IMG/VR virus record: IMGVR_UViG_3300024255_001563 | Span: 1-64,000 of that record | Length of the DNA: 64,000 nt | Strand: one strand, 5' to 3' | Origin: a virus | Taxonomy: Duplodnaviria; Caudoviricetes | In this document: positions 430 through 54,470 of the stretch, piece by piece | Layout: the number at the start of each line of letters is the position of its first letter | Position numbering within the stretch: the first letter of the stretch is position 1 | Made by a program: the position numbers and the translations under genes | The notes under the pieces: generated by a model | What the model was told of the DNA's origin: nothing | The model's input: only the letters and a program-made list of their open reading frames with translations | The model's database searches: none

Positions 430-1860
430 TTAATCTCCTAAATTATTTAGAAAGTTTCTTAATTGTGTACTATTTGTTTCTGCTTTAATTTTACCTACAT
501 TGCCGCCTTCACTAGGATTTTCACTTACTGTATCTGCCGGCGTAGTTGTGCCGCCGCCACGTTTTAAATTATTCAGTAACGATGATCCAGTTTGAGATCC
601 TGTTGTTGTTTGTTCATCTTCTTCACCTAAGTCTTCAATGCGTAGTGTGTCTAAGTTAAATCCTAGATCAATCTTTTGTCCTACGCCACTACTGTTACGT
701 GTCTTCATCAGCTGTAGTTGATAGCGTCCACGTTCACGCATTGCTCTACTTGTAAAGATACCAAACACGTTATCCGCAGTCTGGATCTTACTAAGTCCAC
801 CTGAGATATGCGAGTGATCAAATTCAATTTCTTCAACAGCACCACGGTTCAACTGTGCCGCTGTAACAAACACTGTGTTCAATTCCATTGCTAGGTTACG
901 TAGCTCTTCCGATACGTACTTGTCTTTGATAAACAAGTTCTCTGCACTTACCTTTGTGCTTGCTGGCATTAACAAGTCTAAGTAGTCAATCAGTAGCACG
1001 TCTACCTTCTTGCCAGTTTTAATTTCATACTCTTTGATGTATGAACGTACATCGTTTGCTGTCTTGCCCGATGGCATATACTTGACCTGGAACGCACCTG
1101 ACTTTTTGCCGATCATCTTAACTTTCATCTCGACATCGTCAATGCTCTTAAACACATCACGACTCGGAATGCCAGTAGTCATACTATCAAGTCTCATACT
1201 AACTAGACTCTCTGCAAGCTCTAGTGTCAAGTAGATTACGTTCAAGCCTTTCTCAGCCATGTTAACACCAATGTTAGCAAGGAACAAACTCTTACCTGCA
1301 CCCGAGCCACCTGCAAAGATATTCAGCTCGCCTCTGTTGAAGCCACCAAACAGTTTCTTATCCATAGCTGGCCAGCCTGTGCTTACCTGTCCGTTTGTAC
1401 TCTTAATGCCTTCTAGTCTAGCTCTTGGATCAGCATAATAGTTTGTACCTAAGTCTTTTTGCAAACCTATCTGTACAGCCTTCTTAACTAAGTCTTCACA
1501 TGCACCATAGTCGCCATTCTCTAACAAGTCAGCACTCTTTAGGATTGCCGCTTCTAGTGCTTTGTGTTTACTAAATGTTTCAAACTCTTGCATCAACCAA
1601 TCGTAATGATTCTCTTGCAGTTCGCCTACGTCTTTTAATTGTACATCAGTTGCTGCATTAATCATATCGAGCGTAGGCAATGCATTATGTTCCATAACAT
1701 AATTGTTTAAAAACTCTGCCGGAGCCTTTAGTCTTCTATCAAAACTATCTGGATCAAACACAGCTTGACAGCGTACAAAGCTCTCAGCATCGCTCATCAT
1801 CATTTCTAGATATACTTTTTGTATATCATATCCATAGTCTGTGTTTTGTCTAGTTGCCAT
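430..1860 (-). CDS. gp41: Replicative DnaB-family helicase (T4 gp41-like)
   Basis: STGW motif, Walker A GGSGAGKS, Walker B LLIDYLD, TAAQLNR and KTRNS motifs; lies near the primase. Confidence 0.93.
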   Translation of the reverse strand: MATRQNTDYGYDIQKVYLEMMMSDAESFVRCQAVFDPDSFDRRLKAPAEFLNNYVMEHNALPTLDMINAATDVQLKDVGELQENHYDWLMQEFETFSKHKALEAAILKSADLLENGDYGACEDLVKKAVQIGLQKDLGTNYYADPRARLEGIKSTNGQVSTGWPAMDKKLFGGFNRGELNIFAGGSGAGKSLFLANIGVNMAEKGLNVIYLTLELAESLVSMRLDSMTTGIPSRDVFKSIDDVEMKVKMIGKKSGAFQVKYMPSGKTANDVRSYIKEYEIKTGKKVDVLLIDYLDLLMPASTKVSAENLFIKDKYVSEELRNLAMELNTVFVTAAQLNRGAVEEIEFDHSHISGGLSKIQTADNVFGIFTSRAMRERGRYQLQLMKTRNSSGVGQKIDLGFNLDTLRIEDLGEEDEQTTTGSQTGSSLLNNLKRGGGTTTPADTVSENPSEGGNVGKIKAETNSTQLRNFLNNLGD

Positions 1861-1977: not shown

Positions 1978-3480
1978 TTACGTTGTTGCAGCAGCCGTGC
2001 ATACCTTTACTCCATAGTGTTCTTCAAATTCTACTGCATCCTCTACAGTATTAACCATAGGCTTGCCTTTGATGTTGAGACTTGTGTTCAGTAGTATAGG
2101 GCATCCAGTTTCCTCATACCAGCGTTCTAACAGTTTTCTAAAGCCCACGCTTTGATTAGCAGAAACTGTCTGTACCCTAGAGGTGCCGTCCCCGTGGACA
2201 ATTGCAGGTAATCCAGGATCCGTGCAAGTTGCAGTGTATTGCATGAAGGGGCTGACATATCCGTCGAAATAGGCAGAGGCATGCTCCTCGAGGATCGCTG
2301 GAGCAAAGGGTCTAAACTTCTGTCTACGCTTGATGGTATTGACTCTGTCCTTGATATCTGTGCCGCGGGGGTCTGCAAGTAAGGAGCGATGTCCGAAAGC
2401 TCTGGGCCCGAACTCTGCTCTACCATTGGCGACACCGCAAATACCAGTAGTAAGCAACTCATGTAGAACTTCTTCAACGGGATAATCTCCTTCTATTTCG
2501 TAGCCTGTATACACATGTGGCATAGGCATAAACTCTTTCCTATGCGCTAGTACAGCACCTATAGCACTTCCTGCATCACCCGGGTTGGGCATAATCCATA
2601 CATCGTTCCAATCACTCTTGATAGTGCCGTTTGCACTACAGTTTAGAGCGCACCCTCCCATCAACACTAGGTTACCCGATGGCGATTTCCATCTAGCCCA
2701 GTTGCTGATGTACTTCAATATGTACGCATATATTCCTTGCACAGCAGCCGCTATGTCAAACATGTCTTGCTCTGTAGTAAGGTCTGGGCGCCACCACTGA
2801 CATCCTCTATGCAAGTTGTGTTTAAGTTTGATGGTTGGCTTGTTAAAGAAGATCTGTTTAAGGCTATCATCTTCAAGAGGGTGAAAAAATTCTTCTAGTA
2901 TCTCGTTGAAAAACCTTAGGGGGTCTCCATATGCTGCCATGCCCATAAGGATATATTCATCCTCCTGTGGCTTCAGTCCCAGTCTCTGCGTGAAGGCCGA
3001 GTACCATAGTCCAACGGAATGTGGGTAGCTTTGCGAGTAGATTCTTTTGAGTCCGTTGTCGGCTCCGTTCCAAATAGTGAGTGTTTGAAATTCACCGATA
3101 CTGTCAATAACAACAACAGTGGCTTCTCTAAAAGGACTAGTATAAAAACCGGCAGCAGCATGGGCAAGGTGATGATCAGTATAACGAATAGGAGCAGATA
3201 TACCATACTGTCGAAGATAACGATTAACATTATTTTCGGCCAACCGAAGTCCTTGTCCAGCTCGAATCTGTCTAAGAGTTTTTCTAAAGGGTCTTTCGTA
3301 CCAAATAATTTCATCCGGTTCTCCAAATTGTCGTGCATAGTTAATTATCTCTTTGTTAAGATGCGGATCATTCTTAACTCCGCTGAACCGTTCAGTGTGG
3401 CTAGCAAATTCTAAACCGTTGTCAGTAAATACAGCCAATGCTGCATCGTGACTGTTTGCACTTATACCCCAAGTAATCAT
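1978..3480 (-). CDS. O-carbamoyltransferase (NodU/CmcH/TobZ family), copy 1
   Basis: Kae1-like N-domain (HDAA, ERFSGVKND, DHHLAHA, LMGMAAYG, GGCALN, GDAGSAIG) and YrdC-like C-domain (RAFGHRS, FRPFAP, HGDGTSRVQTV, NTSLN). Confidence 0.93.
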   Translation of the reverse strand: MITWGISANSHDAALAVFTDNGLEFASHTERFSGVKNDPHLNKEIINYARQFGEPDEIIWYERPFRKTLRQIRAGQGLRLAENNVNRYLRQYGISAPIRYTDHHLAHAAAGFYTSPFREATVVVIDSIGEFQTLTIWNGADNGLKRIYSQSYPHSVGLWYSAFTQRLGLKPQEDEYILMGMAAYGDPLRFFNEILEEFFHPLEDDSLKQIFFNKPTIKLKHNLHRGCQWWRPDLTTEQDMFDIAAAVQGIYAYILKYISNWARWKSPSGNLVLMGGCALNCSANGTIKSDWNDVWIMPNPGDAGSAIGAVLAHRKEFMPMPHVYTGYEIEGDYPVEEVLHELLTTGICGVANGRAEFGPRAFGHRSLLADPRGTDIKDRVNTIKRRQKFRPFAPAILEEHASAYFDGYVSPFMQYTATCTDPGLPAIVHGDGTSRVQTVSANQSVGFRKLLERWYEETGCPILLNTSLNIKGKPMVNTVEDAVEFEEHYGVKVCTAAATT

Positions 3481-3599
3481 TTGTAAATAAACGGGTCCTT
3501 CTTGCGTAATTCTTTTAAACGTTTTCTAAATCGTATTTCTTCTTTAACTCGTGTATACGGCCAAATAAATATAGACCAAACTTTCTTAATTAAAACCAT
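3477..3599 (-). CDS. 40-aa basic peptide (MVLIKKVWSIFIWPYTRVKEEIRFRKRLKELRKKDPFIYK)
   Basis: Not in the ORF track; translated by hand. It overlaps the primase stop and is ATGA-coupled to the carbamoyltransferase. From recall, the C-terminal LRKxDPFIY resembles small peptides that precede phage carbamoyltransferases. Confidence 0.7.
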   Translation of the reverse strand: MVLIKKVWSIFIWPYTRVKEEIRFRKRLKELRKKDPFIYK

Positions 3600-4564
3600 T
3601 TCTTTGCTCTCAATCTAATTTTTAATGGGCTACTTTCAGCAGCACTTGCAATACTATACAATGTGTATAGTCTACCATACTTATCAACAGCATCACCTAC
3701 ATCGTTAATGTCTTGATCCCAGTCAGGCATGCTAACATGCCAGCCTCGGTCAATAGCTTGTTCAACTAGTTTGCTACCTGCTTTGTCTCTATCCGGTACA
3801 ACATATATATCCTTGCCTAGTCTGTTGAGCAACAATGCTTGTGCATCACCTATGTCACTACCACCGATGGCACAGCCATCTATGTGTAATGCATCAATTT
3901 GTCCTTCGCATAGTATGCAGAATATCTTATTAGGACCTTGTTCGTCTAAATTAAACACATAACCAGGTTGCATAGTAGTCAGGTACTTGCTTTTGCTTTC
4001 CCCTACTGTACGGGCTGTATATCCGACTATGCGCCCCTCGTAGTAGAAAGGTATAATAAGTCTATCGCGATAAGCAAGACTCGGTGACCAATAGTAATCT
4101 GTATCGTCTAAGTTCAACTGTCTTGCAGACATATATTCTAATATAGACATACTAAACTTGTTGAATTCTTTTATATCTGTAATCTTAATAGCATCTTCTG
4201 GCAATTGTACAGTACTAAACTCCGGTAGTTCAACTTTGTGTTGTTTTACTTCAACCCCTTCGTTTTCACGCATAACATCTAATGCTAGTTTTGTAATTTC
4301 GTCGTCAGGCGCATTAAGCCATTCAAGTAACTTCTTAAACTTATAACTAAGATTACGTCCTGGCTGCCAGCTAGCTTTGTATCCACAGTTGAAACAATGA
4401 AAACTTACTGCTTCACCTTCATGTATAACTCCGCCTCTGCCTTTCGTATCTTGTGTTTCACCGTTATGTATACAACAGGGTGCAATGAAACTAGTCCAAC
4501 CACTAGGAGTGGTTTTACGTTTTGCAGGCAAATATAAAGTCAAGGTGTCAGATACGATGCTCAT
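3590..4564 (-). CDS. gp61: DNA primase (T4 gp61-like)
   Basis: N-terminal Zn ribbon (PCC...HCFNC), RLIIPF and GYTAR motifs, TOPRIM CEGQIDA and PDRD. Confidence 0.9.
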   Translation of the reverse strand: MSIVSDTLTLYLPAKRKTTPSGWTSFIAPCCIHNGETQDTKGRGGVIHEGEAVSFHCFNCGYKASWQPGRNLSYKFKKLLEWLNAPDDEITKLALDVMRENEGVEVKQHKVELPEFSTVQLPEDAIKITDIKEFNKFSMSILEYMSARQLNLDDTDYYWSPSLAYRDRLIIPFYYEGRIVGYTARTVGESKSKYLTTMQPGYVFNLDEQGPNKIFCILCEGQIDALHIDGCAIGGSDIGDAQALLLNRLGKDIYVVPDRDKAGSKLVEQAIDRGWHVSMPDWDQDINDVGDAVDKYGRLYTLYSIASAAESSPLKIRLRAKKWF

Positions 4565-4600: not shown

Positions 4601-5389
4601 TTAATTTCTAATTAATATTTTTGTAATACTATCTGCAGGAGAAGTTGTTGCTTTAAATCTTAGATGACTTAGTACACCATTAAAATTTACAAACGAAGGT
4701 TCTGACTCTGATCCTGTAAAACTCACAGTAGTAATATCAGACCAGTAAGTGCTTTCATCGATTTGATTATCAAGTGTACCTTGTAATATTATATCCCCTA
4801 TATAGCTATCGCTATAGATAGCAGCAGTGTGTAATGCTTCATTACCATTAATACCTGGTTCTGCATTAATTGATTCTGAAATCCAATACGGGGTATCTTC
4901 TGTTACTTGTGTAAATGTAGAAATGCTTTTAGATTCTTTTGCTCCAGGAAATGCACTACTATTAACTTTTATTATTCCGTCGTTGCCAAAATGACTATTA
5001 GAATAAGTTATTACATTTGTGTCATCTTGATCATTAAGGTATATATTATAACTTAGATATTGATCTTTAATATTAAGTAAATCATTTTCTGTAACAGTTA
5101 CTTTAAATAATCCTTTTATCGGAGTTGATCCATCTGATGTAAGTTGAACTCCGTCATGTTCGATTACTAGATTTTTATTTTCATCAAATGCTACAAATTT
5201 CATAGTATAACTAGAAAGGTCAATTGCTTTTTGATCTGCATTTAATAGTCTAAAATCTAAGACATTATCAATGCCTTTATATACTTGAAGTTGTTTATTA
5301 TACACTGGTCTATACTCCGTAATGAATCCTGCCATATCTACTACGGCTGTGGTTGTGTTTGAGACTAAATATCTAGGTACTAATTGCAT
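4601..5389 (-). CDS. Probable virion structural protein (BppU-like/baseplate-type beta-rich)
   Basis: Beta-rich composition, YKGIDNVLDFRLLNADQK motif, ATAAATA late-type motif 5 nt upstream. Function inferred. Confidence 0.5.
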   Translation of the reverse strand: MQLVPRYLVSNTTTAVVDMAGFITEYRPVYNKQLQVYKGIDNVLDFRLLNADQKAIDLSSYTMKFVAFDENKNLVIEHDGVQLTSDGSTPIKGLFKVTVTENDLLNIKDQYLSYNIYLNDQDDTNVITYSNSHFGNDGIIKVNSSAFPGAKESKSISTFTQVTEDTPYWISESINAEPGINGNEALHTAAIYSDSYIGDIILQGTLDNQIDESTYWSDITTVSFTGSESEPSFVNFNGVLSHLRFKATTSPADSITKILIRN

Positions 5390-5410
5390 ACTAATATTTA
5401 TCGGAAAAGC

Positions 5411-5782
5411 ATGTTAACAAAAGATATAAAAGATAATTTTCCATTTTTAAGTGTAGTAACTTATGGCGGAAATGAATACATTGGTATAATCATAAATCAA
5501 GATCAATGGGTAACTAGTATGTATGTGTATACTAATATAAACACTGAAATAGAAAAAACAAAATTTTTAGAACTAGGAGATGTGTGGTGGTGGGAATCAA
5601 ATAGAATGATACCTATTAACATATTCTTGAAAAGTGAATTAGATCCATTTAAATATTCTATTGTAACAATGAACTCTAAAGACGTAAGAGTGTCATTAGG
5701 CCCTTGTGTAAATTTAAATAACTTATCAATTAAAAGAGTTAAACGAAAACACGTTCAACTTATTAGAAAGCCTAAGAGCTAA
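5411..5782 (+). CDS. Conserved-type phage hypothetical protein
   Basis: ORF 5384..5782; likely start at MLTKD (5411). CTAAATA motif at 5365-5371 upstream. Confidence 0.65.
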   Translation: MLTKDIKDNFPFLSVVTYGGNEYIGIIINQDQWVTSMYVYTNINTEIEKTKFLELGDVWWWESNRMIPINIFLKSELDPFKYSIVTMNSKDVRVSLGPCVNLNNLSIKRVKRKHVQLIRKPKS

Positions 5783-6332
5783 AATTCTCGCATACTAAAT
5801 TCATATGTACTACGCATGCCATAGCATAACTTATAGCATGTGCTTTCTTAAAGTAGTATGCACCGTCAGTCGGCTTTGTCCACACTTCTTTCATTATCGT
5901 TTCCCAACTTTCGTTCAGCAAGTATCTCTTGGCTGGCCGAATAATTGCTAAAGTTGCTGCTAGTTGTTCCACTGAACAAGGCTTTAAAATCTTTAACAAC
6001 TGATGCTGGTTGTTGAGGTGGAAGATTAGATCTGAGAAGTCGCTGTGTTGTAATAGAGTCCATTGTGGTTCTTTCTGCATTAGTGATTGTAAATGTACTT
6101 CGTCATTTACATCTTTATATATGCTTACATTTAAAAAATCAAGTTTAAAGTATCCACGCTCTTCTGCTGTCTTATGTTCAATTGTAGATAGGTTATCTAC
6201 AGGGTTATGCGGAATCTCAGTTGCGTAAACTCCGGTGTTATGCTTCTTGCCTGTATCTAATTTTGCCGTTCGGTGTTGTATCTTATTTAAGATAATATTA
6301 CGATCAGCAAAGTCAATATCAATATCTGGCAT
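5772..6332 (-). CDS. Miniature DNA polymerase III alpha (DnaE)-like protein, palm plus partial fingers only
   Basis: MPDIDIDF, KHNTGVY, GYFKLDFL, LAIIRP and FKKAHAISYA match C-family polymerase motifs in order, but the protein is only 186 aa. Confidence 0.85.
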   Translation of the reverse strand: MPDIDIDFADRNIILNKIQHRTAKLDTGKKHNTGVYATEIPHNPVDNLSTIEHKTAEERGYFKLDFLNVSIYKDVNDEVHLQSLMQKEPQWTLLQHSDFSDLIFHLNNQHQLLKILKPCSVEQLAATLAIIRPAKRYLLNESWETIMKEVWTKPTDGAYYFKKAHAISYAMACVVHMNLVCENFSS

Positions 6333-6340
6333 ACTCTATC

Positions 6341-6622
6341 CTATAATAAAAATAATTGTATCATAGCAATTGAATTCATTACTACAAACCATAATGTTAA
6401 CACGATAGCAAACCCTGCTTTGCGAATCCACGTACTAATTACACCAAGAATACTTCCTACTAGATACATAGGAATAAAGATCTTAGTTGCAGGATCTAGC
6501 ACAGTATATGTTAATACTGCACTAGCACCTATCAGCATTACAGCTTCAATTAGTTCGCAATAAAATGCAAACGGTGATAGTTTATAACTATCTTTAAAAA
6601 AGTCTATAACGTATTTAATCAT
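6341..6622 (-). CDS. Small membrane protein (about 3 TM segments)
   Basis: Three hydrophobic stretches in 93 aa. Confidence 0.6.
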   Translation of the reverse strand: MIKYVIDFFKDSYKLSPFAFYCELIEAVMLIGASAVLTYTVLDPATKIFIPMYLVGSILGVISTWIRKAGFAIVLTLWFVVMNSIAMIQLFLL

Positions 6623-6806
6623 CTGATCCCTCTATTTTACTCCAGTGGTATTCACCATCTTTGGGTGTACATCCGATATACTCTTCTCCAGTCTCTCTAT
6701 CAACTAATTTCCACTTCATAGGTGCTTTTGTTTTGACAATAAGTTCTACTGGCTTTTCAAGTTCATATACAGTTACGCCGTTTTTTAATTCTCTAAAGTT
6801 TGCCAT
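6615..6806 (-). CDS. Hypothetical protein
   Basis: 63-aa ORF overlapping both neighbours on the same strand. Confidence 0.6.
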   Translation of the reverse strand: MANFRELKNGVTVYELEKPVELIVKTKAPMKWKLVDRETGEEYIGCTPKDGEYHWSKIEGSDD

Positions 6807-7197
6807 CTTCTCTCATCTTTTTGCGTATTTTTGTTGCACTAATGTCGTGTATATCTTTACCTAAATCGTGTTCAGTAAATGTATATCCAACGCCTCTTCC
6901 ATAACTAATGTCTACAATGTTTGGAACTATCATAATAACATATTCTTCGTTATAAGTAAAGCCTTCTTTTGCTAGTTCTTTTTTGATGTTTTCTTCTACG
7001 TCAGTAACAATAAACGGATTGTCATCTTGTGTTGCTGTGCGTCCGCCTGACGCATCTGTGTCTTGTGGTACAGTTCTAATCTGTATGCATACTTGTCCTG
7101 TTTCGGCAAGAGCTCGTTTAAACAGTTCTGTATGTCCAGCATGCCAAGGTTGCCAACGGCCTAACATTTGTGTAGTAGGCTTAAATCTATCAAACAT
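6793..7197 (-). CDS. HxGH-superfamily nucleotidyltransferase (cytidylyl/adenylyltransferase-like)
   Basis: GRWQPWHAGH motif and ISATKIR (KMSKS-like) motif; likely start MFDRF at 7197. Confidence 0.8.
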   Translation of the reverse strand: MFDRFKPTTQMLGRWQPWHAGHTELFKRALAETGQVCIQIRTVPQDTDASGGRTATQDDNPFIVTDVEENIKKELAKEGFTYNEEYVIMIVPNIVDISYGRGVGYTFTEHDLGKDIHDISATKIRKKMREDGKL

Positions 7198-7621
7198 TTT
7201 TTGCTCTCCAATATTGGTATCTTTCAACTGCAAGCATTAGTGTTTGGTGTGTATCCTCAAACCACTCTGCTACATGATAATCGCATTTAGGCGGTTGTTC
7301 AAATACTTTGTTTGTATCTTCAAACCTACCTTCTTTAATAGTATCCATCCACACTGTAAAGTCAGGGTCAAAGGCGTTACGTGCTGCTTCTGTAGGGCAT
7401 ACAAAGTCTGTAATAGCAATCTTACCTGCCATTACAACACCGTCGCTTAGATGACGCATACGCTGTGCTTGTCGCATACGTCCTTCAGGTGTAAAGTCCC
7501 AGTCGTCATACTTTGTGCGTACTGCATCTGCATTGATATGCACGCCGCCTAATAGTTGGGCAAAGGGCGTTGCTAGCGTAGTTTTGCCACTACCGGGTAA
7601 TCCAAATATTAATATTTTCAT
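7190..7621 (-). CDS. cysC: Adenylylsulfate (APS) kinase-like P-loop kinase
   Basis: GLPGSGKTTLA, NADAVR, D-W-D-F-T-x-E-G-R, AITDFVCP and FEQP motifs; short form. Confidence 0.75.
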   Translation of the reverse strand: MKILIFGLPGSGKTTLATPFAQLLGGVHINADAVRTKYDDWDFTPEGRMRQAQRMRHLSDGVVMAGKIAITDFVCPTEAARNAFDPDFTVWMDTIKEGRFEDTNKVFEQPPKCDYHVAEWFEDTHQTLMLAVERYQYWRAKNV

Positions 7622-8319
7622 AATGCACTTTCTTTTACTATGTCTTTTACTAATTGTACATCGTTCGGTTGTCGTTTAAACCGTAATGCCCAATGTTGTG
7701 GATTAATAACATGATATACAAGAGACAATTGTTCATCATTTAATCTACTTAATAAATCCTTACCGCTTTTACAATTTAAAATAAGCCACGGACTTATTTT
7801 ACCATCTCTAATATTCCATACTGCTTTGTTAAGGCTAATGTGGTGAAAATAGTGATTCCAAGGAGCAGGCTCATGTTCACTTGCCCATTCCATCATTGTT
7901 GTTACACTGCGCTCCAGTGCCGTTGCTACATCTTCTTTAAGTACAAGATCAATTGCATATTTCTCGTACATTTCTTCTTTGCACCAGTGGTCAAGTTTAA
8001 CTCCACTAGTAACAACATAGTCAATATACTTTTCAGGATACAGAGGCTTTACATTGTTTAAGAAACTGCCGAACTTTACAAATGCATTATAATAAGGACT
8101 TGCACAAAACTCTTCATATGTTTTTTCTTTTTTATTGCCTGCACTTAGTTTATAGAATCTACCAAAAGCATAAAAGCCATAACGTACACGTTTCTCATCT
8201 TTCTGCAAAGCTCTGCGCTTCTTCTCACACATATGCGCTGCAAGAGTTTTTTCTCTTACATAACTGCTTCCGCAGTATTCGCACTTGTATGGTTTATCAG
8301 AGTTTGACGTCAATGTCAT
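7618..8319 (-). CDS. Hypothetical protein with an N-terminal C2H2/C2HC-type zinc finger
   Basis: KPYKCEYCGSSYVREKTLAAHMC; likely start MTLTS at 8319. Confidence 0.7.
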   Translation of the reverse strand: MTLTSNSDKPYKCEYCGSSYVREKTLAAHMCEKKRRALQKDEKRVRYGFYAFGRFYKLSAGNKKEKTYEEFCASPYYNAFVKFGSFLNNVKPLYPEKYIDYVVTSGVKLDHWCKEEMYEKYAIDLVLKEDVATALERSVTTMMEWASEHEPAPWNHYFHHISLNKAVWNIRDGKISPWLILNCKSGKDLLSRLNDEQLSLVYHVINPQHWALRFKRQPNDVQLVKDIVKESAL

Positions 8320-8761
8320 GTTCTTGAGCCAATTGTTTGAGTTCTTTTTTTGTAGATGTTTTAGCAAGTAATTCTACCTCGTCTGTCTTCATATGCGGAT
8401 AAATTTGTTCTAATAATTTCATTGCTTTGCCTGTACTTCCGTCTCGTTTTTTAAAACCGATCCACGGATGAAATTCTTTTTTTCCTGTATTACCGCATTG
8501 ACATAAAATTAACCATTGTAGTTTAGGATGTTTGTTTCCTAGTATAGCCCAGTTTTTATTATAATATTCGTTTGTTTTAAACACAGCAAGTTCTTGTTTT
8601 TCTCTATTACCAGAAACACTACTCATATATCTATTAAGATTCCATAGGTCGCCTTTGATTTCTTTTTGTCCGTCTTCTTCAGCCGCTTCCCACATGTCTT
8701 TAATTCCTGCATCTAATGCAGGAATCATTTCTTTAAATAGGTCTATATGTTTATTTGGCAT
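8297..8761 (-). CDS. Clamp-loader small subunit (T4 gp62-like)
   Basis: NLNRYMSS...NEYYN...KLQWL...EFHPWI...K...IYP pattern resembles gp62; start MPNKH at 8761. Confidence 0.6.
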   Translation of the reverse strand: MPNKHIDLFKEMIPALDAGIKDMWEAAEEDGQKEIKGDLWNLNRYMSSVSGNREKQELAVFKTNEYYNKNWAILGNKHPKLQWLILCQCGNTGKKEFHPWIGFKKRDGSTGKAMKLLEQIYPHMKTDEVELLAKTSTKKELKQLAQEHDIDVKL

Positions 8762-8909
8762 TTTTTTCTGGCGCTTTCTTTTTCTTTGAACCAAATGTAT
8801 ATTCAATATTTTCAGTAATAGCACCTGACTCGCAAACAGTAATTTTATTATTTTCTAGCCACTGCTCGATTAATTTTTTATCTTTGTTGTCTATTAGTTC
8901 TCTAGCCAT
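8751..8909 (-). CDS. 52-aa hypothetical protein (MARELIDNKDKKLIEQWLENNKITVCESGA...)
   Basis: Not in the ORF track; translated by hand. Fills the gap between kdsB and the gp62-like gene with overlaps at both ends. Confidence 0.65.
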   Translation of the reverse strand: MARELIDNKDKKLIEQWLENNKITVCESGAITENIEYTFGSKKKKAPEKNAK

Positions 8910-9567
8910 TGTTTTGTTTCCACCTTTCTAAATCTTGTGGAGTGTTTATTTCAATACCGTTAAAATCAACTTCTGTTACTCCTATTGTAACATCGTTTTG
9001 TATCCAGCGCAACTGTTCAAGTTGTTCTTTTTCTTCTTCTTTGTATTTTTTTAAATTTCTATAGGTTGCTATTTCTTCTAGTCTATAACCATAAACACCT
9101 AAATGATGATCTCCGTATTCCAGTGGGGCTCTGCAAAACCAGTGTGCAGTATCTCCATTATGAATCATCTTAACACTATTAGGATCTTGTTGATTTTCCT
9201 TAGACATTTTCGTGTATGCAGTCGAAACTGAATAATCGTCTAGTTTTTGCTCAACAGCTTTTATGATATCTAAAGTAATATCTGGCATATCTCCTTGCAC
9301 ATTTATTATTTTTGTAGCCGTTACTTGAGAGCCATCAGTAGCAATCGAAATGCGTTCAGTTCCATTTTCCGCTGGCTGGGTAAAAAAGCATAACGGAGAC
9401 TGATTTAGTACTTTTCTACTATCTGAAACTATATATGACGGATATCCAAATGATTGACATTTTTCCCATACATTCCTAATTAAGGTTTTTCCATTAAGGT
9501 CTGCTAACATTTTTTCAGGAAAGCGTGTGCTTTCTAGTCTAGCAGGAATTAATATTATTGTGCTCAT
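8902..9567 (-). CDS. kdsB: CMP-Kdo synthetase (3-deoxy-manno-octulosonate cytidylyltransferase)
   Basis: IPARLESTRFPEKML, NGTERI, INVQGD, DPNSVK, HHLGVYGY, LEQLRW and EINTPQDL motifs. Confidence 0.92.
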   Translation of the reverse strand: MSTIILIPARLESTRFPEKMLADLNGKTLIRNVWEKCQSFGYPSYIVSDSRKVLNQSPLCFFTQPAENGTERISIATDGSQVTATKIINVQGDMPDITLDIIKAVEQKLDDYSVSTAYTKMSKENQQDPNSVKMIHNGDTAHWFCRAPLEYGDHHLGVYGYRLEEIATYRNLKKYKEEEKEQLEQLRWIQNDVTIGVTEVDFNGIEINTPQDLERWKQNNG

Positions 9568-9579
9568 AAATTTTTCCCT

Positions 9580-10377
9580 TCATAATTCAATAGTTGTTAT
9601 TTCTTGTATTGTATATTGGTGTGCAATAATATCTCTAACAACTCCTTCAAAGTCTTCTAGTTTAAGCATGTTGGGACCATCGCTAGGTGCGTTGTCTGGA
9701 TCAGCATGTACTTCTATAAAGAAGTTGTTAATGCCCATAGCAGAGGCAGCACGAGCAAGACCTGGAACGTAATCACGATTACCGCCACTCGATTCCCCAT
9801 TGCCTCCTGGCTTTTGGACAGCGTGGGTAACATCAAAAACACAAGGTACATCGTAATTGTCAAGCATATACTGAAGCCCAGTAAAATCAACAACCAAAGT
9901 ATTATATCCAAAACTAGTACCTCTTTCTGTTATCCAAACTTCTTTAGCATCTTCTGTTTTTGAAAGGATACCTTTTACATCCCACGGTGCTAGGAACTGA
10001 CCTTTCTTAATATTAACAATCTTATCTGTATCACAGGCTGCTTGAATAAGATCTGTTTGTCTGCACAAGAACGCAGGAATCTGATAGACATCAACTGCAT
10101 CCTTAAACTGTCGTTCAATACGTCTAACCTGTACTGCGTCATGTACGTCTGTTAGCGTCTTTACGCCTAGCAATACTTTTAGTGCTAAAAAGTCTGTAAG
10201 CGTTGCTTCCATGCCTGCGCCACGTTTGCCTTTGATACTACTACGATTGGCTTTGTCAAAACTTGCTTTGAAGTAATACTCAATTCCATACTTGTCACAT
10301 ACACGTTTACACTCACGTGCAATCTCGCTAGACTGTGCTAGTGTTTCGTGCTGACATGGTCCTGCTATTATTCTCAT
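9580..10377 (-). CDS. kdsA: Kdo-8-phosphate synthase
   Basis: IAGPC, FKASFDKANRSS, QIPAFLCRQTDL, NIKKGQFLAP, ERGTSFGY, DVTHAVQKPG and IEVHADPDNAPSDG motifs. Confidence 0.95.
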   Translation of the reverse strand: MRIIAGPCQHETLAQSSEIARECKRVCDKYGIEYYFKASFDKANRSSIKGKRGAGMEATLTDFLALKVLLGVKTLTDVHDAVQVRRIERQFKDAVDVYQIPAFLCRQTDLIQAACDTDKIVNIKKGQFLAPWDVKGILSKTEDAKEVWITERGTSFGYNTLVVDFTGLQYMLDNYDVPCVFDVTHAVQKPGGNGESSGGNRDYVPGLARAASAMGINNFFIEVHADPDNAPSDGPNMLKLEDFEGVVRDIIAHQYTIQEITTIEL

Positions 10378-10386
10378 TTTTCTTCC

Positions 10387-10551
10387 TTAATAAAATACTA
10401 CCCACAGAATTAAAAGTATAACTGCCCATCCAAATATACCTAATCCATTGTTTCCAACTAAGCCTCTGCTTCTAGCACAGCTATAACAGTATCTATATTT
10501 TGCACTGCATTTATTACTACAAAAAAATGCATCGCATGTCTTTTTACTCAT
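10387..10551 (-). CDS. Small Cys-rich protein with a C-terminal TM helix
   Basis: C-x4-C-x3-C...C-x2-C followed by a hydrophobic tail; TAATG overlap with metK. Confidence 0.55.
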   Translation of the reverse strand: MSKKTCDAFFCSNKCSAKYRYCYSCARSRGLVGNNGLGIFGWAVILLILWVVFY

Positions 10552-14121: not shown

Positions 14122-15585
14122 TTAATTCCAATCCACTTTTTCTATTGTAAATGGATACTGCGCCTCTTTGTAAAACTTTTTACGCTGAGTAAGGTGCCGC
14201 TTCGCAAACTTACATGTTGATGTAAGGTCCCATATTTGCACGAAGTCTTTGTCTTTTGCTATTCTTACGCCTCTACCAATTGATTGAATTACTCTTACAA
14301 AGGACTTCCCAGGCTCCAAAAGAACCAAGTTAAAAATACGAGGAATGTTAAGACCCACGGCAGCAACTCCATAGGTTGCGATAATAACTTCATTGTCGCC
14401 TTCACGAATTGTATCATATGTTTCTTTCCTATCTTTTACTTTAACTGCACCGCTTACAAACGTTGCGTTGGGTATAAGTTCTGCAAGTGCTTCGCCAGCA
14501 CTAATTCTATCTACTAGTATAAGTGTGTTGCCTGTGTCTTTTATTGTGTTTAATAATTTGCCTATATATTCTAATCTTGCTGTGTTTGTTGTTAGATATT
14601 TTAATTCTTCTTGGTAGCCTGCATGTGCTACTGTATCTATTAATTGTACTACATTAACATGACATTGTGATAGTACACCTTTGTCTTGTAATTCCTTTGC
14701 ACTGATGTTACCGATCACAGGTCCTAACGAAGCGTGTATTGATTCAAACTCAAACTTCTCTTTGGGTACTGTACCAGTTAGTCCCCAACGTATGGGTGCA
14801 TTCCGTAGGTTGCGTGTAAGCAAGTTCTTGAGAACTTCTGCTTTGGCTTGGTGTACTTCGTCAACAATAATAGTGCTTACACCTTCTAAGAACTCAGCTA
14901 GTGATAACACTGCGCTTCCGTCTTTATGCTTCTTGTCCAAAATATTTAAGGATTGCCAAGTGCAAATAGTGTGAGTCTTACCTAACATCTTCCTGTCTCC
15001 GAAGTACACCCCTACATCGAGACCGCAGTTAATATAGTCTTCTTCTGTTTGTTCTACTAACGACTTGTTAGGAACAATTACTAAAGATCTACCATACGGT
15101 TCGCTTATGTGTGACAGCGTTGCTGTGGTAATAGTTTTACCTGCACCAGTAGCAATCTGTTGCAAGCTCTGTGGATTATTCAAAAAATTATTAATTGCTT
15201 CTACTTGATAGTCACGTAGAATAATATCTTCGCCTTCTGCTGGATGACCTTCTGGCCATTGTACACCTTGGTCTTTCCAGTATGTTTCTGTAACTGGCGT
15301 AAAGTTTAACTGTATCGGATGTCGCTTATCTTCAATGTCAACAATTTGTACTCTGTTCTTAGCAAGTACTTCTTGTACAACATCAAGATGATTAACATAT
15401 CCAGTGCCGCCGATTCCAAAAAAGGCAACCTTTCCATCCCACCGTCCTAGCTTGTACTGTGGCATGTGCTTTGCATACGGCACTTCAAACTTAAGAGCGT
15501 TTGCTAATTTTCGACGTACATCTACATCAAGTCCTTCGATCTTAATGTTTACTTCGTCTTCGATTATTAATTTACAAGTTGCCAT
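14122..15585 (-). CDS. uvsW: SF2 DNA helicase UvsW
   Basis: LRDYQ, ATGAGKT, DEVH, GLTGT, ATYG...GLNIP and QSIGRGVR motifs. Confidence 0.92.
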   Translation of the reverse strand: MATCKLIIEDEVNIKIEGLDVDVRRKLANALKFEVPYAKHMPQYKLGRWDGKVAFFGIGGTGYVNHLDVVQEVLAKNRVQIVDIEDKRHPIQLNFTPVTETYWKDQGVQWPEGHPAEGEDIILRDYQVEAINNFLNNPQSLQQIATGAGKTITTATLSHISEPYGRSLVIVPNKSLVEQTEEDYINCGLDVGVYFGDRKMLGKTHTICTWQSLNILDKKHKDGSAVLSLAEFLEGVSTIIVDEVHQAKAEVLKNLLTRNLRNAPIRWGLTGTVPKEKFEFESIHASLGPVIGNISAKELQDKGVLSQCHVNVVQLIDTVAHAGYQEELKYLTTNTARLEYIGKLLNTIKDTGNTLILVDRISAGEALAELIPNATFVSGAVKVKDRKETYDTIREGDNEVIIATYGVAAVGLNIPRIFNLVLLEPGKSFVRVIQSIGRGVRIAKDKDFVQIWDLTSTCKFAKRHLTQRKKFYKEAQYPFTIEKVDWN

Positions 15586-47054: not shown

Positions 47055-47315
47055 ATGTTACCTAAACTATCAGAATCACAATTCTTTAAAGACGAACTAA
47101 AATTGTTTGAAATTCATATGCAAGATCTATCAAACGACAAAAAAATCGAAGCACAAAAAAAGATTGCAAGTCTTTTAGAACTAGTAGAATATGTAGACAC
47201 AGGTCATACACAAAAAATTGGATCTAGAATAACTCCGTCATTAATGGATAATACTAGATCGCAAATTGTAGATCTTAGAAAACAAATAGCAAAAATTTGT
47301 AATATTAAGATATAG
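47055..47315 (+). CDS. Hypothetical helical protein
   Basis: 86-aa ORF directly after the cupin. Confidence 0.6.
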   Translation: MLPKLSESQFFKDELKLFEIHMQDLSNDKKIEAQKKIASLLELVEYVDTGHTQKIGSRITPSLMDNTRSQIVDLRKQIAKICNIKI

Positions 47316-50300
47316 TTATTGCGCCAAACATATTATTGTGGAATTCACATTGATAATAATATGTTCCTGTAGTTGTTGGTGTCCAGTATACTGATCCTAA
47401 AGTTGCACCTTGATTAGTTACACCTATGGCTTGATCGCCTGTACCTGTACCTTGAACAGTCTTGAGGTAGAAAGGATGTCCTGGTGCATTTACAGAGAAT
47501 TCAACGTAATCACCAACATTAAATGCTAGTGCAGGATCATTTCCGTTCACACTACCGTTTCTGTCACTACCGCTTAGAGTATAGTTTTGTGTATTATTAG
47601 CACTTACACTGATAACATAATCAGGTGCAACACTTGTATCTAGAATTGTTACATCTTCTGTTAAACTGCCAGTACTATTACCTAAACTATCTGTTGATGC
47701 AAGTGTAACAGTCATTGTTTCTGCACCTTCAGTTAATGAATCGTTTTCTAATGTAATAGTAAATGTGCCTGTGCCACTATTAATGTTAATTACACCGCCT
47801 AGTGTCGCCGCTGTAATATCATCTACGGTTACACCAGAGATAGAATACCCAACAGTTGTGCCGTCATCTACTCCGCTTGTAGATAGTGTATATGTAACAG
47901 TTGTTCCTTCTCCTACTTCGGTTGCATCAGCAGTTAATGAATCATATGTTATAGGAATCGATGTGTCTGCAATAACAATGTCAATACTATCTCGACCATT
48001 ATCTAATGATAGTGTCATAGTTTCTGGACCTTCTGTAGTAACATCGTTTGCAATGACAAATGCTATTGTATCTGTATTACTATTAACTGTAAAGTTGCCA
48101 GTAATACTACCACTACTCAAGTCACTTGCATCGATACCTGTTATTGTATATGCAATAGATGTGCCATTAGCTAGACTTGTAGTATCAAGTGTAATATTTA
48201 CTGTATCGCCTTCATCGACGGACACACTATTTGCACTTAGTTCATATGTTGGACCTAGACTTGTATCTAAAATTGTAATACTAATGTCATCTTCACTATT
48301 ATCTAGTGCTAGATTCATAACTTCAGATCCTTCTGTAGTAATATCTTGATCAAATGTGAAACTCAATGATGCAAAATTACTGCTAACAGTAAAGTTACCT
48401 GTTATAGATCCGCTTGATAAATCCGATGCATCTATACCTGTAATAGTATACGGAACAACCGTTCCGTTTGATACGTTTGTTGTGTTAAGTAAAATATTTA
48501 CACTATCGCCTTCATTAACAGTTGTTGAACCAGAGCTTAGTATATATGTAGGTGATCCTGTAATACTAGTATCATTAATTACAACACTTACATCTTCACC
48601 TAGTCCGTCTAATGTTAATGTTAATGATTCACTACCTTCTGTAGTAGCATCATCTGCAATATTTATTGCAAGTGTATCTGTATTTGAAGTTATAGTAAAC
48701 GATCCTGTTAGTGCTATATCTATATCAGATACATCAACACCTGTAATTGTGTATGGAATACTAGTAGCATCTGCTATATCTGTTGTTGTAAGAGTAATAA
48801 CAATCGAATCGCCTTCGTTTACATCTGGAACACTACTTGATAGACTATAGGTCGGCGGCGCTGTACTTGTATCTGCAATAACCACATTGTCTGATAAAGA
48901 AGTTGTTCCATTTCCGTTACTATCAGTTGCGTCTAATGTTATTATAAGAGTTTCAGCACCTTCTGTATCTAAGTCTTCTACAAGATCTATGCTTAATGTT
49001 GATGTATTACCTACAATTGTAAATATACCAGTTAAGCTTACTAAGTCTATATCATCTACCGATACCCCTGTAATTGTATATCCAACTGTTGTATCATCAG
49101 CAATTTGACTTGTATTAAGAGTAAACGTAATTGTATCGCCTTCATCTGCCGTTTCTACATCTGCTGCAAGACTTGTATATGTCGGAACAACAGGAGTTGT
49201 ACTAGTGTCTATAATAGTAACATCAACACTATCACCGCCATTGTTAAGTGCTAGTGTAATTGTTTCAGTGCCCTCTGTAGATAAGTCCTCTGCTAATGTA
49301 AAGCTAATATTAGAAGTATTATTTACAACTATAAAGCTTCCTGATATACTACCAGAAGTAAAATCATTAGCTGTTATTCCTGTACCTGTAATCGTATATT
49401 GAATTGGTGTTCCGTTTGGAATATTTGTAGTTGTTAGATCAACATTAAATGTTGCTCCTTCATTAACAGTTGTCGGAGAAGCTATAAGTGAATATGTAGG
49501 ATCTAGAGATGTATCATTAATAGTTATTGGATTTGATGTTACGCTAGTACCGTTTATGTTTAATGTTAATTCTTCAGCGCCTTCTGTAGTAGTATCTTCT
49601 GCAATTGCTAATTCAATAATTGATTTATTATTATATCCTGCATAAAAATTTCCATTTAAATCTACTGCGGTATCATTAACCTTTATAATAGAAAATATTG
49701 TATCAGGTCCTGAAGCAGACTCTTCCACTCCTAATCTATATGTATTTCCGTCTGTTGAAGTAAGTAATCCGTTTTCAGAAAAGGCAGAATCTGAATTATA
49801 ATCACCTACAATTGATGTATTCCAACGTAATCGATATCTATATCGTTGCCCGGGTGCAGAACTACCAGTTAATGTTCTAATTACTTCGTATGTATTACTA
49901 ACATACCTTTCTTGCCATTGATATAGATTACTAATATCTGAAGTTGTAATTCCCGAAAGTGTAAACGGAATGTCTGTTCCTTCGTCTATATTTACTGTTG
50001 TAAGAGTATATCTTACTGTGCCGCCTTCATCGATGCTAGTAACATTTTGAGATAGATAATATAGCGGAATAGTAGTAGAAAGCGATACAGTACCAGATAA
50101 CGATAAGGGTTGTTTTCCGTATTTCGAAAACATCATTCTATTAGGACTGCCCATTAATGATGTTTCGTATGCTGTATAATCTGAATCTAATCCTGTAGAA
50201 TATAATACATCTTTACTTTCAGCTACTAATTTGTTTTTTATTTGTAACGGAGTTGCATTAGGATCTACTTGTAAATGAAGTGCAATTAACCCAGCAACTT

Positions 50301-51642
50301 GAGGAGCTGCCATGCTTGTGCCGCCGATGTTTGCAATTTTATAACCCGGAGTAAAATAATCTCCTGCACTTGAACCAAATACATTAGTATCACTACAAGC
50401 ACTTATTATATCAGTTCCTGGGGCCCAGAAATTTGTACCAGGCCCTTTATTACTACTGCCTGCTGTTTTATCTCTAAATACTACACCATCTTGTTGTGTA
50501 GTACTATCTACATTACCTACAATAAATGCTTCTTCGCTATATGGACTAGATCCTTGATGATATTGAGTATTAAGTCCACTAAAAGTCACTTCGTTGTTGT
50601 AATCAAGGCCTGTAGGCACATCTATTTTATAATATTGATTTCCCGATGCAATACAAACATGTATTCCTGCATCAATCATGTCTTCAACCTCTGCATCAAT
50701 TTGCGCTAGTCTTACTGGAATTCTTCTACTTGTACCGCTGGGGCCAGTTAGTTGAGGAACTATACCATACGTTTGCCATAACTGATTTTGTGTTTCACCA
50801 AGATAAGACCATGGTGTTCCTCGATATGTCCCTCCAGTCGGGTCAGTAGTAGTAATTGTTCTACCGTATCCCCAACTCATATTTACTACTGTAGGACGTC
50901 CGTTAGTTTTTGCTAAATGCCATAATCGAATCACATCAAAGCAGTCAGTTGTGCTTATGCCTCCATTTGGATCCGAAGGCCCTTCTAATCCCGAAACTTT
51001 TACTGCATATATGTTTGCATTTTTAGCCCAGCCATATGTTTTACCTGCTGTAATTCCTGCGCAATGTGTTCCGTGGCCGTGATAATCAATATAATGTCCT
51101 GCAGGCATTGTGCCAGGTAATCCACTTTCGCTATACCAATCAATTTCTATAAATCTACTAGCACCTTGCATGTTTTGCCATTCTGGATGATCGGCACTAG
51201 TACCTGTATCTTGTATTACTACATCAACATCAGTTCCGTCTAGCCCATAAGGATAAAATCCATCCGGTGCAGTAGTTCCAGCAGAATACGAATTTGTATC
51301 ATCAATACACCTTCTAAGACCCCAGTTTGCTTTTGTATTATCTACTGCTGAAGTTTTATCAAAGTTAAATCCTTGTGTAAGATGAAGCATTTTATCTATA
51401 CCGTCTTGTTGATCTATAGGTACTTCCACTGCTTCTACTCTTGGATCATTTTTTAATCTTTCGGCTTCTTCGTCACTTAATAGCCAGTTAGTCATTCTCT
51501 TAGAGCCTGGTCTAGAATTCACAACGTCTACTGATCTTTCAGGTATAAATTCGCTTCCGGTTGAGCTAGATAATTCTGTATCTAATTCTTCTAAATTATT
51601 ATTTCTTTTTACAACTACTACATATTCTTTTTCGGTGCTCAT
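47305..51642 (-). CDS. Subtilisin (S8) protease with seven Ig/Calx-beta-like repeats and a C-terminal cupredoxin-like domain
   Basis: Catalytic triad IQDTG / HGTHCAG / GGTSMAAP; N-terminal prodomain; about 100-aa repeats; ends H-P-F-Y...YYYQCEFHNNM. Confidence 0.9.
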   Translation of the reverse strand: MSTEKEYVVVVKRNNNLEELDTELSSSTGSEFIPERSVDVVNSRPGSKRMTNWLLSDEEAERLKNDPRVEAVEVPIDQQDGIDKMLHLTQGFNFDKTSAVDNTKANWGLRRCIDDTNSYSAGTTAPDGFYPYGLDGTDVDVVIQDTGTSADHPEWQNMQGASRFIEIDWYSESGLPGTMPAGHYIDYHGHGTHCAGITAGKTYGWAKNANIYAVKVSGLEGPSDPNGGISTTDCFDVIRLWHLAKTNGRPTVVNMSWGYGRTITTTDPTGGTYRGTPWSYLGETQNQLWQTYGIVPQLTGPSGTSRRIPVRLAQIDAEVEDMIDAGIHVCIASGNQYYKIDVPTGLDYNNEVTFSGLNTQYHQGSSPYSEEAFIVGNVDSTTQQDGVVFRDKTAGSSNKGPGTNFWAPGTDIISACSDTNVFGSSAGDYFTPGYKIANIGGTSMAAPQVAGLIALHLQVDPNATPLQIKNKLVAESKDVLYSTGLDSDYTAYETSLMGSPNRMMFSKYGKQPLSLSGTVSLSTTIPLYYLSQNVTSIDEGGTVRYTLTTVNIDEGTDIPFTLSGITTSDISNLYQWQERYVSNTYEVIRTLTGSSAPGQRYRYRLRWNTSIVGDYNSDSAFSENGLLTSTDGNTYRLGVEESASGPDTIFSIIKVNDTAVDLNGNFYAGYNNKSIIELAIAEDTTTEGAEELTLNINGTSVTSNPITINDTSLDPTYSLIASPTTVNEGATFNVDLTTTNIPNGTPIQYTITGTGITANDFTSGSISGSFIVVNNTSNISFTLAEDLSTEGTETITLALNNGGDSVDVTIIDTSTTPVVPTYTSLAADVETADEGDTITFTLNTSQIADDTTVGYTITGVSVDDIDLVSLTGIFTIVGNTSTLSIDLVEDLDTEGAETLIITLDATDSNGNGTTSLSDNVVIADTSTAPPTYSLSSSVPDVNEGDSIVITLTTTDIADATSIPYTITGVDVSDIDIALTGSFTITSNTDTLAINIADDATTEGSESLTLTLDGLGEDVSVVINDTSITGSPTYILSSGSTTVNEGDSVNILLNTTNVSNGTVVPYTITGIDASDLSSGSITGNFTVSSNFASLSFTFDQDITTEGSEVMNLALDNSEDDISITILDTSLGPTYELSANSVSVDEGDTVNITLDTTSLANGTSIAYTITGIDASDLSSGSITGNFTVNSNTDTIAFVIANDVTTEGPETMTLSLDNGRDSIDIVIADTSIPITYDSLTADATEVGEGTTVTYTLSTSGVDDGTTVGYSISGVTVDDITAATLGGVININSGTGTFTITLENDSLTEGAETMTVTLASTDSLGNSTGSLTEDVTILDTSVAPDYVISVSANNTQNYTLSGSDRNGSVNGNDPALAFNVGDYVEFSVNAPGHPFYLKTVQGTGTGDQAIGVTNQGATLGSVYWTPTTTGTYYYQCEFHNNMFGAITIS
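47635..50065 (-). repeat. Seven tandem ~100-aa repeats (V.EG.T....L.T......T...YTITG....D......G.F..........D..TEG.E)
   Basis: Repeats read directly in the translation; the first is interrupted by an insertion. Confidence 0.85.
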
Positions 51643-54390: not shown

Positions 54391-54403
54391 AAATTATCCT
54401 TTA

Positions 54404-54453
54404 TATAAATATGTATCTAAAAAATTAACTGGGTACTTTATTTATGGTAAATA
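54404..54453. promoter_or_regulatory. Late-type promoters driving the halogenase/oxygenase island in both directions
   Basis: TATAAATA on + (54404-54411), ATAAATA on - (54439-54445), GTAAATA on + (54447-54453). Confidence 0.6.
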
Positions 54454-54470
54454 CTCTGCAAGGAGTTCAT

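Follow-up and report, generated by a model that had tools for sequence, protein, structure and literature searches.

A split minimal form of DNA polymerase III's alpha subunit (Pol III alpha) has been described from sequence in the group 2.2 (RaK2/PA5oct/Atu_ph07-like) jumbo phages by Iyer, Anantharaman, Krishnan, Burroughs, and Aravind (2021, Viruses 13:63; PMC7824862), who interpreted its C-terminal unit as template-binding and suggested either cooperation with the polymerase PolB or a role in repair. We analyzed a window of 64,000 nucleotides, the first 64 kb of a 200,843-bp IMG/VR virus record (IMGVR_UViG_3300024255_001563) judged to be ~57% complete, and found that a 186-codon open reading frame (ORF) within it very probably encodes the C-terminal unit (C-unit) of a split minimal Pol III alpha (DnaE-like, family C) of the group 2.2 jumbo phages. 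The ORF shares with the published C-terminal unit (phrog_11778) its family, its length, its motifs, and a split point between the Gly-Ser (GS) motif and PDxDxD, and it likewise has a replication-gene neighborhood and a PolB companion. It differs in that this copy comes from an uncultured marine lineage and in that the partner gene is not on the sequenced fragment. An initial annotation of the window had implied that the gene was new; the kind is already published (PMC7824862), a literature search turned up no paper on the family after that one, and the window's gene has each of the defining features tested, the presence of the partner gene aside. The value of the window lies mostly in annotation, the fitting label being "split minimal Pol III alpha, C-terminal unit" and not discovery, pseudogene, or replicase.

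The C-unit ORF is one open frame with an ATG start codon and a TAG stop codon. AGGA lies 8 to 11 nt upstream of the start codon, which is itself 8 nt past the stop codon of the preceding gene. The encoded protein (P0001) contains MPDIDIDF (residues 1 to 8), KHNTGVY (30 to 36), KLDFL (63 to 67), AIIRP (129 to 133), and FKKAHAISYA (161 to 170). These are the DnaE motifs that had been listed as following the Pol III alpha order in an intact 186-aa ORF, and all of them are present, far beyond chance expectation. The gene and its key codons are as follows.

5772..6332, minus strand: coding sequence very probably of the C-terminal unit of a split minimal Pol III alpha (P0001), 186 aa, predicted to be Mg2+- and template-binding
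6312..6326, minus strand: D3-I-D5-I-D7 codons (PDxDxD motif); D3 and D5 correspond to Escherichia coli D401 and D403, and the three aspartates are invariant in 75 homologues
6138..6146, minus strand: K63-L64-D65 codons (KxD motif); D65 corresponds to the third catalytic carboxylate (E. coli D555), and K63 and D65 are invariant
5934..5939, minus strand: R132-P133 codons (the "RPG" finger motif of DnaE), invariant
5838..5849, minus strand: K162-A-H165 codons of FKKAH (DnaE FNKSH), kept by at least 90% of the diverse set of 75 and by 78/78 close homologues

We aligned 75 full-length C-unit homologues, reaching down to 27% identity, and found that D3, D5, D7, K63, D65, R132, and P133 were invariant; the same seven residues were also unchanged in 78 close loci. 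H31, G34, Y36, K135, K162, and H165 were conserved in at least 90% of the 75 homologues, and the finger motifs RP-x-K and FKKxH were kept in 90 to 100% of homologues. The proposal that all three catalytic aspartates (D3, D5, and D65) are retained is thus borne out, and D7 is just as constant.

The family assignment rests on several comparisons. The phage family phrog_11778, annotated as "DNA polymerase," matches the C-unit from end to end (E 7e-58), and phrog_405, a full-length DnaE-type family, matches it in three colinear pieces (profile positions 441 to 453, 582 to 678, and 773 to 809). The copies in PA5oct, Atu_ph07, and RaK2 are 36 to 54% identical to it. The Pfam family DNA_pol3_finger gave E 0.038, which is below the cutoff, and a single-sequence phmmer search of the PDB returned noise only (lectins and a kinase), so that a profile was needed. 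The profile built from the 75 homologues retrieved only Pol III alpha chains from the PDB (E. coli 2HNH with E 1.3e-5, and also those of Mycobacterium tuberculosis and Thermus aquaticus), with positions 52 to 137 aligned to E. coli 539 to 641 and positions 149 to 180 to E. coli 740 to 772.

Structure prediction against DnaE, which had been proposed as a check on the original reading, pointed the same way. The AlphaFold2 model of the C-unit had a predicted local distance difference test score (pLDDT) of 95.9 and a predicted template modeling score of 0.87, and it matched only DnaE/PolC, with Z of ~10. The top 14 PDB matches found by Foldseek were all Pol III alpha or related polymerase entries. 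By VIA-align, the best fit was to T. aquaticus Pol III alpha 461 to 838 (Z 10.0, root mean square deviation 3.5 Å, 184 residues aligned), followed by M. tuberculosis DnaE1 419 to 808 (Z 9.9), E. coli 400 to 781 (Z 9.1), and the DNA-polymerase entry 9qrn (Z 7.7), against Z 3.5 for the best unrelated chain. Its profile matches and its predicted fold mark the C-unit as a thumbless nucleotidyltransferase core of the C family (DnaE-type).

The comparison with E. coli also shows how much has been lost. The spacing from D5 to D65 is 60 residues, compared with 152 in E. coli (D403 to D555), so that the interval from the DxD motif to the third Asp has lost ~92 residues; from the E. coli structure, we take this stretch to be the thumb. 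Short spacing and absence of the thumb had both been recognized in the initial annotation, which nevertheless overlooked a second deletion of ~98 residues in the middle of the fingers, between RPG and FNKSH, where E. coli 642 to 739 is reduced to ~11 residues. The C-unit ends 16 residues past FKKAHAISYA, the alignment of the model stops at E. coli residue 781, and the clamp-binding/HhH and OB domains that follow the fingers are not part of it. The Arg residues upstream of PDxD are absent, as had been reported, but this understates the loss. In nucleotidyltransferases with the Pol-beta fold, the DxD strand has to be preceded by a Gly-Ser motif, and the C-unit lacks not only this motif but the whole GS-motif half of the fold.

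The gene is under purifying selection. Over 919 unsaturated pairs, the median pairwise Nei-Gojobori ratio of nonsynonymous to synonymous substitution rates (dN/dS) was 0.136 and the highest was 0.295, and 78 of 80 related viral contigs carry an intact C-unit ORF of 185 to 191 aa; dN/dS and length conservation had been named as the means of detecting relaxed selection, and neither gives a sign of it. There are at least 8000 C-unit clusters at 90% identity (184 to 195 aa among those listed) and 410 at 50% identity. Copies of the C-unit in the marine lineage share 70 to 85% identity with one another, and metagenomes contain them in great abundance. Isolate genomes carry the same ORF, as do independent metagenomes sampled by at least 10 studies, and at least 10 studies of marine and seawater metagenomes contain DNA near-identical to that of the window. 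Independent DNA contigs of another study (records 24 and 25) cover the C-unit gene without any differences, which argues against the misassembly that had been raised as a possible refutation.

The half of the fold that the C-unit lacks is found on another protein. The C-unit starts exactly where position 96 of Pfam PF07733 starts, and in related phages a separate ORF of ~170 to 190 aa (typically ~185), the N-unit, matches PF07733 from ~16 to 98, including the GRGS nucleotide-binding motif. Scans with PF07733 found the N-unit as a single copy in 8/8 sufficiently complete relatives, 15 to 182 kb from the C-unit (Paride, 44 kb; RaK2, 34 kb; Atu_ph07, 182 kb; XacN1, 15 kb; SCTP-2, 116 kb; Vibrio phage 2.275.O, 30 kb; phAPEC6, 31 kb; and G002, 122 kb). 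In G002, a metagenomic contig from a close relative whose C-unit is 74% identical to that of the window, PF07733 positions 20 to 95 are covered by the N-unit and positions 96 to 196 by the C-unit, so that the split falls between two adjacent positions of the Pfam model. The N-unit C terminus reads ...(I/F)WG(V/L)GRGSS...(E/K)EFL(K/R), ending where a bacterial DnaE would continue into PDFDVDF. With at least 7993 clusters, the full-length ones listed being 182 to 187 aa, the N-unit family resembles the C-unit family in abundance and fixity of length. Folded alone from a shallow alignment, the N-unit reached a pLDDT of 57, and this model was not used as evidence.

The surroundings of the N-unit gene are also conserved (L088:928-2553, L006:228-2407, and L007:951-2486). 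A small helical ORF of ~80 to 100 aa lies upstream, and the N-unit is followed by an ORF of 113 to 127 aa with a VDMD..L...N.(R/K)GD.LG.GG motif and then by an ORF that by eye resembles a GroES-type co-chaperonin.

Two lines of evidence bear on whether the halves assemble. One is a natural fusion, P0354 (375 aa), encoded by a single called ORF (L093:1066-2193) on a 2.4-kb AT-rich metagenomic contig. Its residues 1 to 180 are an N-unit (31% identical to P0121, E 9e-23), followed by a linker of ~10 residues and a C-unit 36% identical to that of the window. It carries the same motifs in both halves and has the usual convergent neighbor downstream, and it differs from the window's protein in being a single polypeptide. 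Because PF07733 positions 20 to 95 reside on a separate protein in 8/8 relatives and because the two parts occur naturally fused, the window's ORF is best read as half of an active site and not as a self-sufficient "mini-DnaE." Fused forms are rare, P0354 being the only one among 150 representatives listed, and a search for related loci found no relatives of it in IMG/VR. A composite DNA pattern (W-G-x-G-R-G-S-S...D-x-D-x-D within 84 to 114 nt), each half of which works on known loci, found no fusion in IMG/VR or in JGI metagenomes; this pattern is blind to forms without the Trp, P0354 included. A combined MAFFT alignment of the fused protein with both units placed the N-units over the C half and was not used.

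The other line is complex prediction, for which we paired the G002 N-unit with the window's C-unit. The pair scored 0.92, compared with 0.05 for the best of three controls, although a high score may reflect likeness alone, the two proteins being halves of a fold for which full-length structures have been solved; the mark used was reached by 58/80 solved complexes and by 2/110 mismatched pairs. Runs agreed in at least 98% of contacts, with a partner pLDDT of at least 91. In the predicted complex, N-unit residues 146 to 159 (strand plus GS loop, NDIVWGVGRGSSVA) contact C-unit residues 2 to 9 (PDIDIDFA) to form an interchain beta-sheet. Taken together, the natural fusion and the predicted complex give computational support to assembly of the N-unit with the C-unit; also backed by computation are the homology and the fold, the conserved residues, the purifying selection, the joint occurrence of the two halves, and the predicted interface.

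A further protein, P0123 (425 aa, on a 1405-bp ENA contig), carries a C-unit that lacks its first ~40 residues, including PDxDxD, in frame after an N-terminal part of ~270 aa. By eye, that part looks reverse transcriptase-like, and it has no Pfam match; P0123 could be a mobile-element insertion or an assembly chimera.

On this basis, the heterodimer would rebuild an active site of the Pol-beta type. Pairing of strand IVWGV in the N-unit with strand DIDIDF in the C-unit would give one active site from two chains, and the GRGS loop of the N-unit and the arginines near it would hold the triphosphate. The C-unit would supply the D3/D5/D7 strand, the K63-x-D65 strand, and the shortened fingers (RP-x-K and FKKxH); D3, D5, and D65 would hold two metals, with K63 beside them, and the fingers would face the template. 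Most likely, the halves join noncovalently and without an intein, since neither end leaves space for intein halves.

The phage protein shares features with other family C polymerases and also differs from them. Like bacterial DnaE (2HNH, 3E0D, and 5LEW), the C-unit has the palm topology, the three catalytic Asp residues with the Lys of KxD, and the RPG and FNKSH finger motifs, and the structural match (Z of 9 to 10) extends across all 186 residues. Unlike bacterial DnaE, it uses these 186 residues to span what takes ~380 there, without PHP, thumb, mid-finger, beta-binding, HhH, or OB regions; the N-terminal half of the palm is on another polypeptide, and the enzyme is not the genome's only polymerase and probably not its main one. 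The split-intein DnaE of cyanobacteria (DnaE-N and DnaE-C, joined by protein trans-splicing) resembles it in being a family C polymerase made from two distant genes. Its split site differs, however: the C-unit starts directly at MPDIDIDF with no residues before it, and the N-units of relatives end in ...EFLR after the palm helix, with no intein halves. A split intein would instead be marked by intein halves on both sides of the split and by Cys, Ser, or Thr as the first C-extein residue.

As for what the enzyme does, the heterodimer may be an active, DNA-templated polymerase. It would probably be poorly processive on its own, because thumb, clamp-binding domain, OB fold, and PHP domain are all missing. 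We consider it most likely that it would act at the fork beside PolB, in primer extension or gap filling, because its gene holds a fixed place in the order next to the primase and DnaB genes. The initial annotation had held that the protein is not the replicase, and it is probably not the main one, since an 889-aa PolB ORF lies in the same record (G000:C1, ~196 to 198 kb). That annotation had also offered three functions, namely, a distributive or template-independent polymerase, a protein/nucleotide-transfer enzyme, and one subunit of a split polymerase completed in trans; only the last fits the evidence. Its suggested search of the rest of the genome for DnaE pieces and a PolB turned up the PolB but neither a PHP match (PF02811) nor a further PF07733 match in the 200-kb record, and a DnaQ-type exonuclease (PF00929) was likewise not found in the 200,843 bp.

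Several points weigh against the view that the ORF is one half of a working split polymerase. No N-unit was found in this phage's 200,843 bp: scans of the record with PF07733 and phrog_405, GRGS and ERFL regular expressions applied to all ORFs of at least 50 aa, and tblastn with the Paride and RaK2 N-units and with the six-gene N-unit neighborhood of G002 were all empty. The predicted complex, besides its likeness to solved structures, used the N-unit of a related phage and not the cognate one. The missing finger segment (E. coli 642 to 739) carries conserved residues that contact the deoxynucleoside triphosphate (dNTP) in bacterial DnaE, and with the dNTP-contacting segment lost, templated polymerase activity is not assured. 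A literature search found no biochemical activity reported for any member of the family. Finally, the metatranscriptome contigs that we matched do not show transcription of the C-unit gene body.

The first of these points probably reflects an incomplete record and not a missing gene. Synteny with G002 is colinear from 18.5 kb to 0.56 kb of the window, where the window's contig ends and G002 continues, and the G002 N-unit lies 122 kb further on in the same direction. Because the record is only ~57% complete and its contig stops within this syntenic stretch, the most economical placement of this phage's N-unit gene would be past the contig's left end, within the 43% of the genome that the record lacks. 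Going by synteny with G002, it would be some 100 to 120 kb further along, as an ORF of ~185 aa with the ending ...VWGVGRGSS...EFLR.

We weighed three other explanations. A real two-chain enzyme could instead be a nontemplated or end-specific nucleotidyltransferase (for tailing, genome-end filling, or repair patches) or could make a product other than DNA. The Pol-beta superfamily includes many nontemplated transferases; the thumb and the segment corresponding to E. coli 642 to 739 are absent, no clamp-binding, OB, or PHP domain is found anywhere in the 200-kb record, and a complete PolB is available for bulk synthesis. We nevertheless regard such an enzyme as unlikely, because 90 to 100% of homologues keep the DnaE-specific motifs RP-x-K and FKKxH, for which a bare minimal nucleotidyltransferase has no role, because the gene has a fixed place in the primase-helicase block in 8/9 phages examined, and because Iyer et al. 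read the C-unit as template-binding (PMC7824862). That the 186-aa protein works with no phage N-unit, either alone or with a host protein such as the host DnaE or clamp, as a mini-polymerase or as a modulator of the host replisome, would agree with the lack of an N-unit in 200 kb of record and with the confident folding of the C-unit alone in AlphaFold2. It is very improbable all the same, as the protein lacks the GS motif and the triphosphate-holding arginines of every Pol-beta-fold transferase, the N-unit co-occurs in 8/8 sufficiently complete relatives and is fused to the C-unit in P0354, and the ~57% complete record ends on the side on which G002 has its N-unit.

Next to no probability attaches to a decaying remnant of a captured bacterial dnaE, or to an artifact of assembly from a longer gene, to which the near failure of Pfam to detect the C-unit might point. 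The initial annotation had preferred a C-family nucleotidyltransferase to a pseudogene, and rightly so: pseudogene and misassembly are excluded by the low dN/dS (~0.14), by the invariance of the catalytic residues, and by a length that is fixed across thousands of clusters, and the same ORF recurs in isolate genomes and independent metagenomes.

The family represents a natural minimal core of the bacterial replicative polymerase, split within the active site and maintained in that state by strong selection across thousands of phage lineages. Were it active, it would reveal how small a part of a C-family polymerase suffices for catalysis and would demonstrate that two polypeptides can together build a polymerase active site; replisomes with two polymerases in T4-related giant phages would be a further implication. 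A more specific proposal, which we put forward as possible though doubtful, is that the two-chain enzyme of ~370 residues serves a very abundant lineage of marine jumbo phages as a second working polymerase in the replisome, taking primers from the adjacent DnaG-type primase and handing them to PolB. Polymerase hand-off has parallels in the passage from DnaE3 to PolC in Bacillus and from Pol alpha to Pol delta in eukaryotes. If this proposal were true, no smaller C-family polymerase would be known, and the enzyme could serve as a model of how the family looked ancestrally.

The source phage is an uncultured marine T4-related jumbo myovirus, and the window encodes a tail sheath protein, the large terminase, UvsX, a UvsW-type helicase, a DnaG-type primase, and DnaB. 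Around the C-unit gene, the following features were assigned.

5384..5782, plus strand: convergent ORF, phrog_11637, with no assigned function; likely start is the ATG at 5411
4601..5389, minus strand: virion-structural-like protein, a member of the conserved neighborhood
3590..4564, minus strand: DnaG/Toprim-type primase, a conserved downstream neighbor
430..1860, minus strand: DnaB-type replicative helicase, a conserved downstream neighbor; the contig ends ~0.5 kb beyond
14122..15585, minus strand: UvsW-type SF2 helicase, lying upstream in a replication block shared with RaK2 and phAPEC6

Immediately upstream of the C-unit is a 93-aa membrane-like ORF, and downstream come the convergent ORF (132 aa), the structural-like gene, and the primase and DnaB genes. 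As had been stated, none of these neighbors supplies the missing polymerase domains. The order of C-unit, convergent ORF, structural-like gene, primase, and DnaB is kept in 8/9 phages examined, XacN1 being the one that departs from it. The place upstream of the C-unit is variable: in the window, positions 6341 to 6806 hold the 93-aa membrane-like ORF and a 63-aa ORF, and in G002 the same place is taken by an ORF that by eye is peptide deformylase-like (L090:1026-1523) and overlaps the start of the C-unit.

The convergent ORF keeps its place beside the C-unit in all relatives examined, the fused gene included, and its position is constant from PA5oct and RaK2 to the marine relatives. Copies of this ~120- to 130-aa ORF lie at L090:2069-2464, L001:6569-6967, L002:6581-6937, and L093:2185-2415. 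Its 3' end overlaps that of the C-unit by 11 nt here and by 11 to 17 nt in most of the phages compared, and it is the sole opposite-strand gene in a block whose other genes all run one way. It could serve the mini-polymerase as a partner or as a regulator; an ESM Atlas look-up with this ORF gave no usable match. One seawater metatranscriptome contig of 205 nt (X17) is identical to positions 5591 to 5795 of the window with zero differences. It is of low depth, with DNA carry-over possible, and apart from the 3' portion of the convergent ORF it reaches just the final 24 nt of the C-unit; the other runs labeled as possible RNA are probably DNA. These matches speak neither for nor against transcription of the C-unit gene.

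A second coding pattern for D-I-D-I-D occurs at positions 49830 to 49844 (minus strand) of the window, within a 1445-aa baseplate-hub/protease-like ORF (47305..51642). Because no other DnaE motif surrounds it, we take it to be a coincidence.

Between the UvsW-type helicase gene and the C-unit, positions 6793 to 11642 (minus strand) of the window hold metabolic genes. An adenylylsulfate (APS)-kinase-like P-loop protein among them is backed by a Pfam scan, and ORFs resembling CMP-KDO synthetase, KDO-8-P synthase, and S-adenosylmethionine synthetase were recognized by eye only. The matching interval of RaK2 contains small hypothetical genes only. Elsewhere, positions 52861 to 58235 and 1978 to 3480 of the window carry a pair of tryptophan-halogenase-like genes (phrog_2928; E values of 1e-98 and 2e-109) together with two carbamoyltransferase genes of the NodU/CmcH type, one of them between dnaB and the primase gene. 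Such a load of tailoring enzymes is unusual for a phage.

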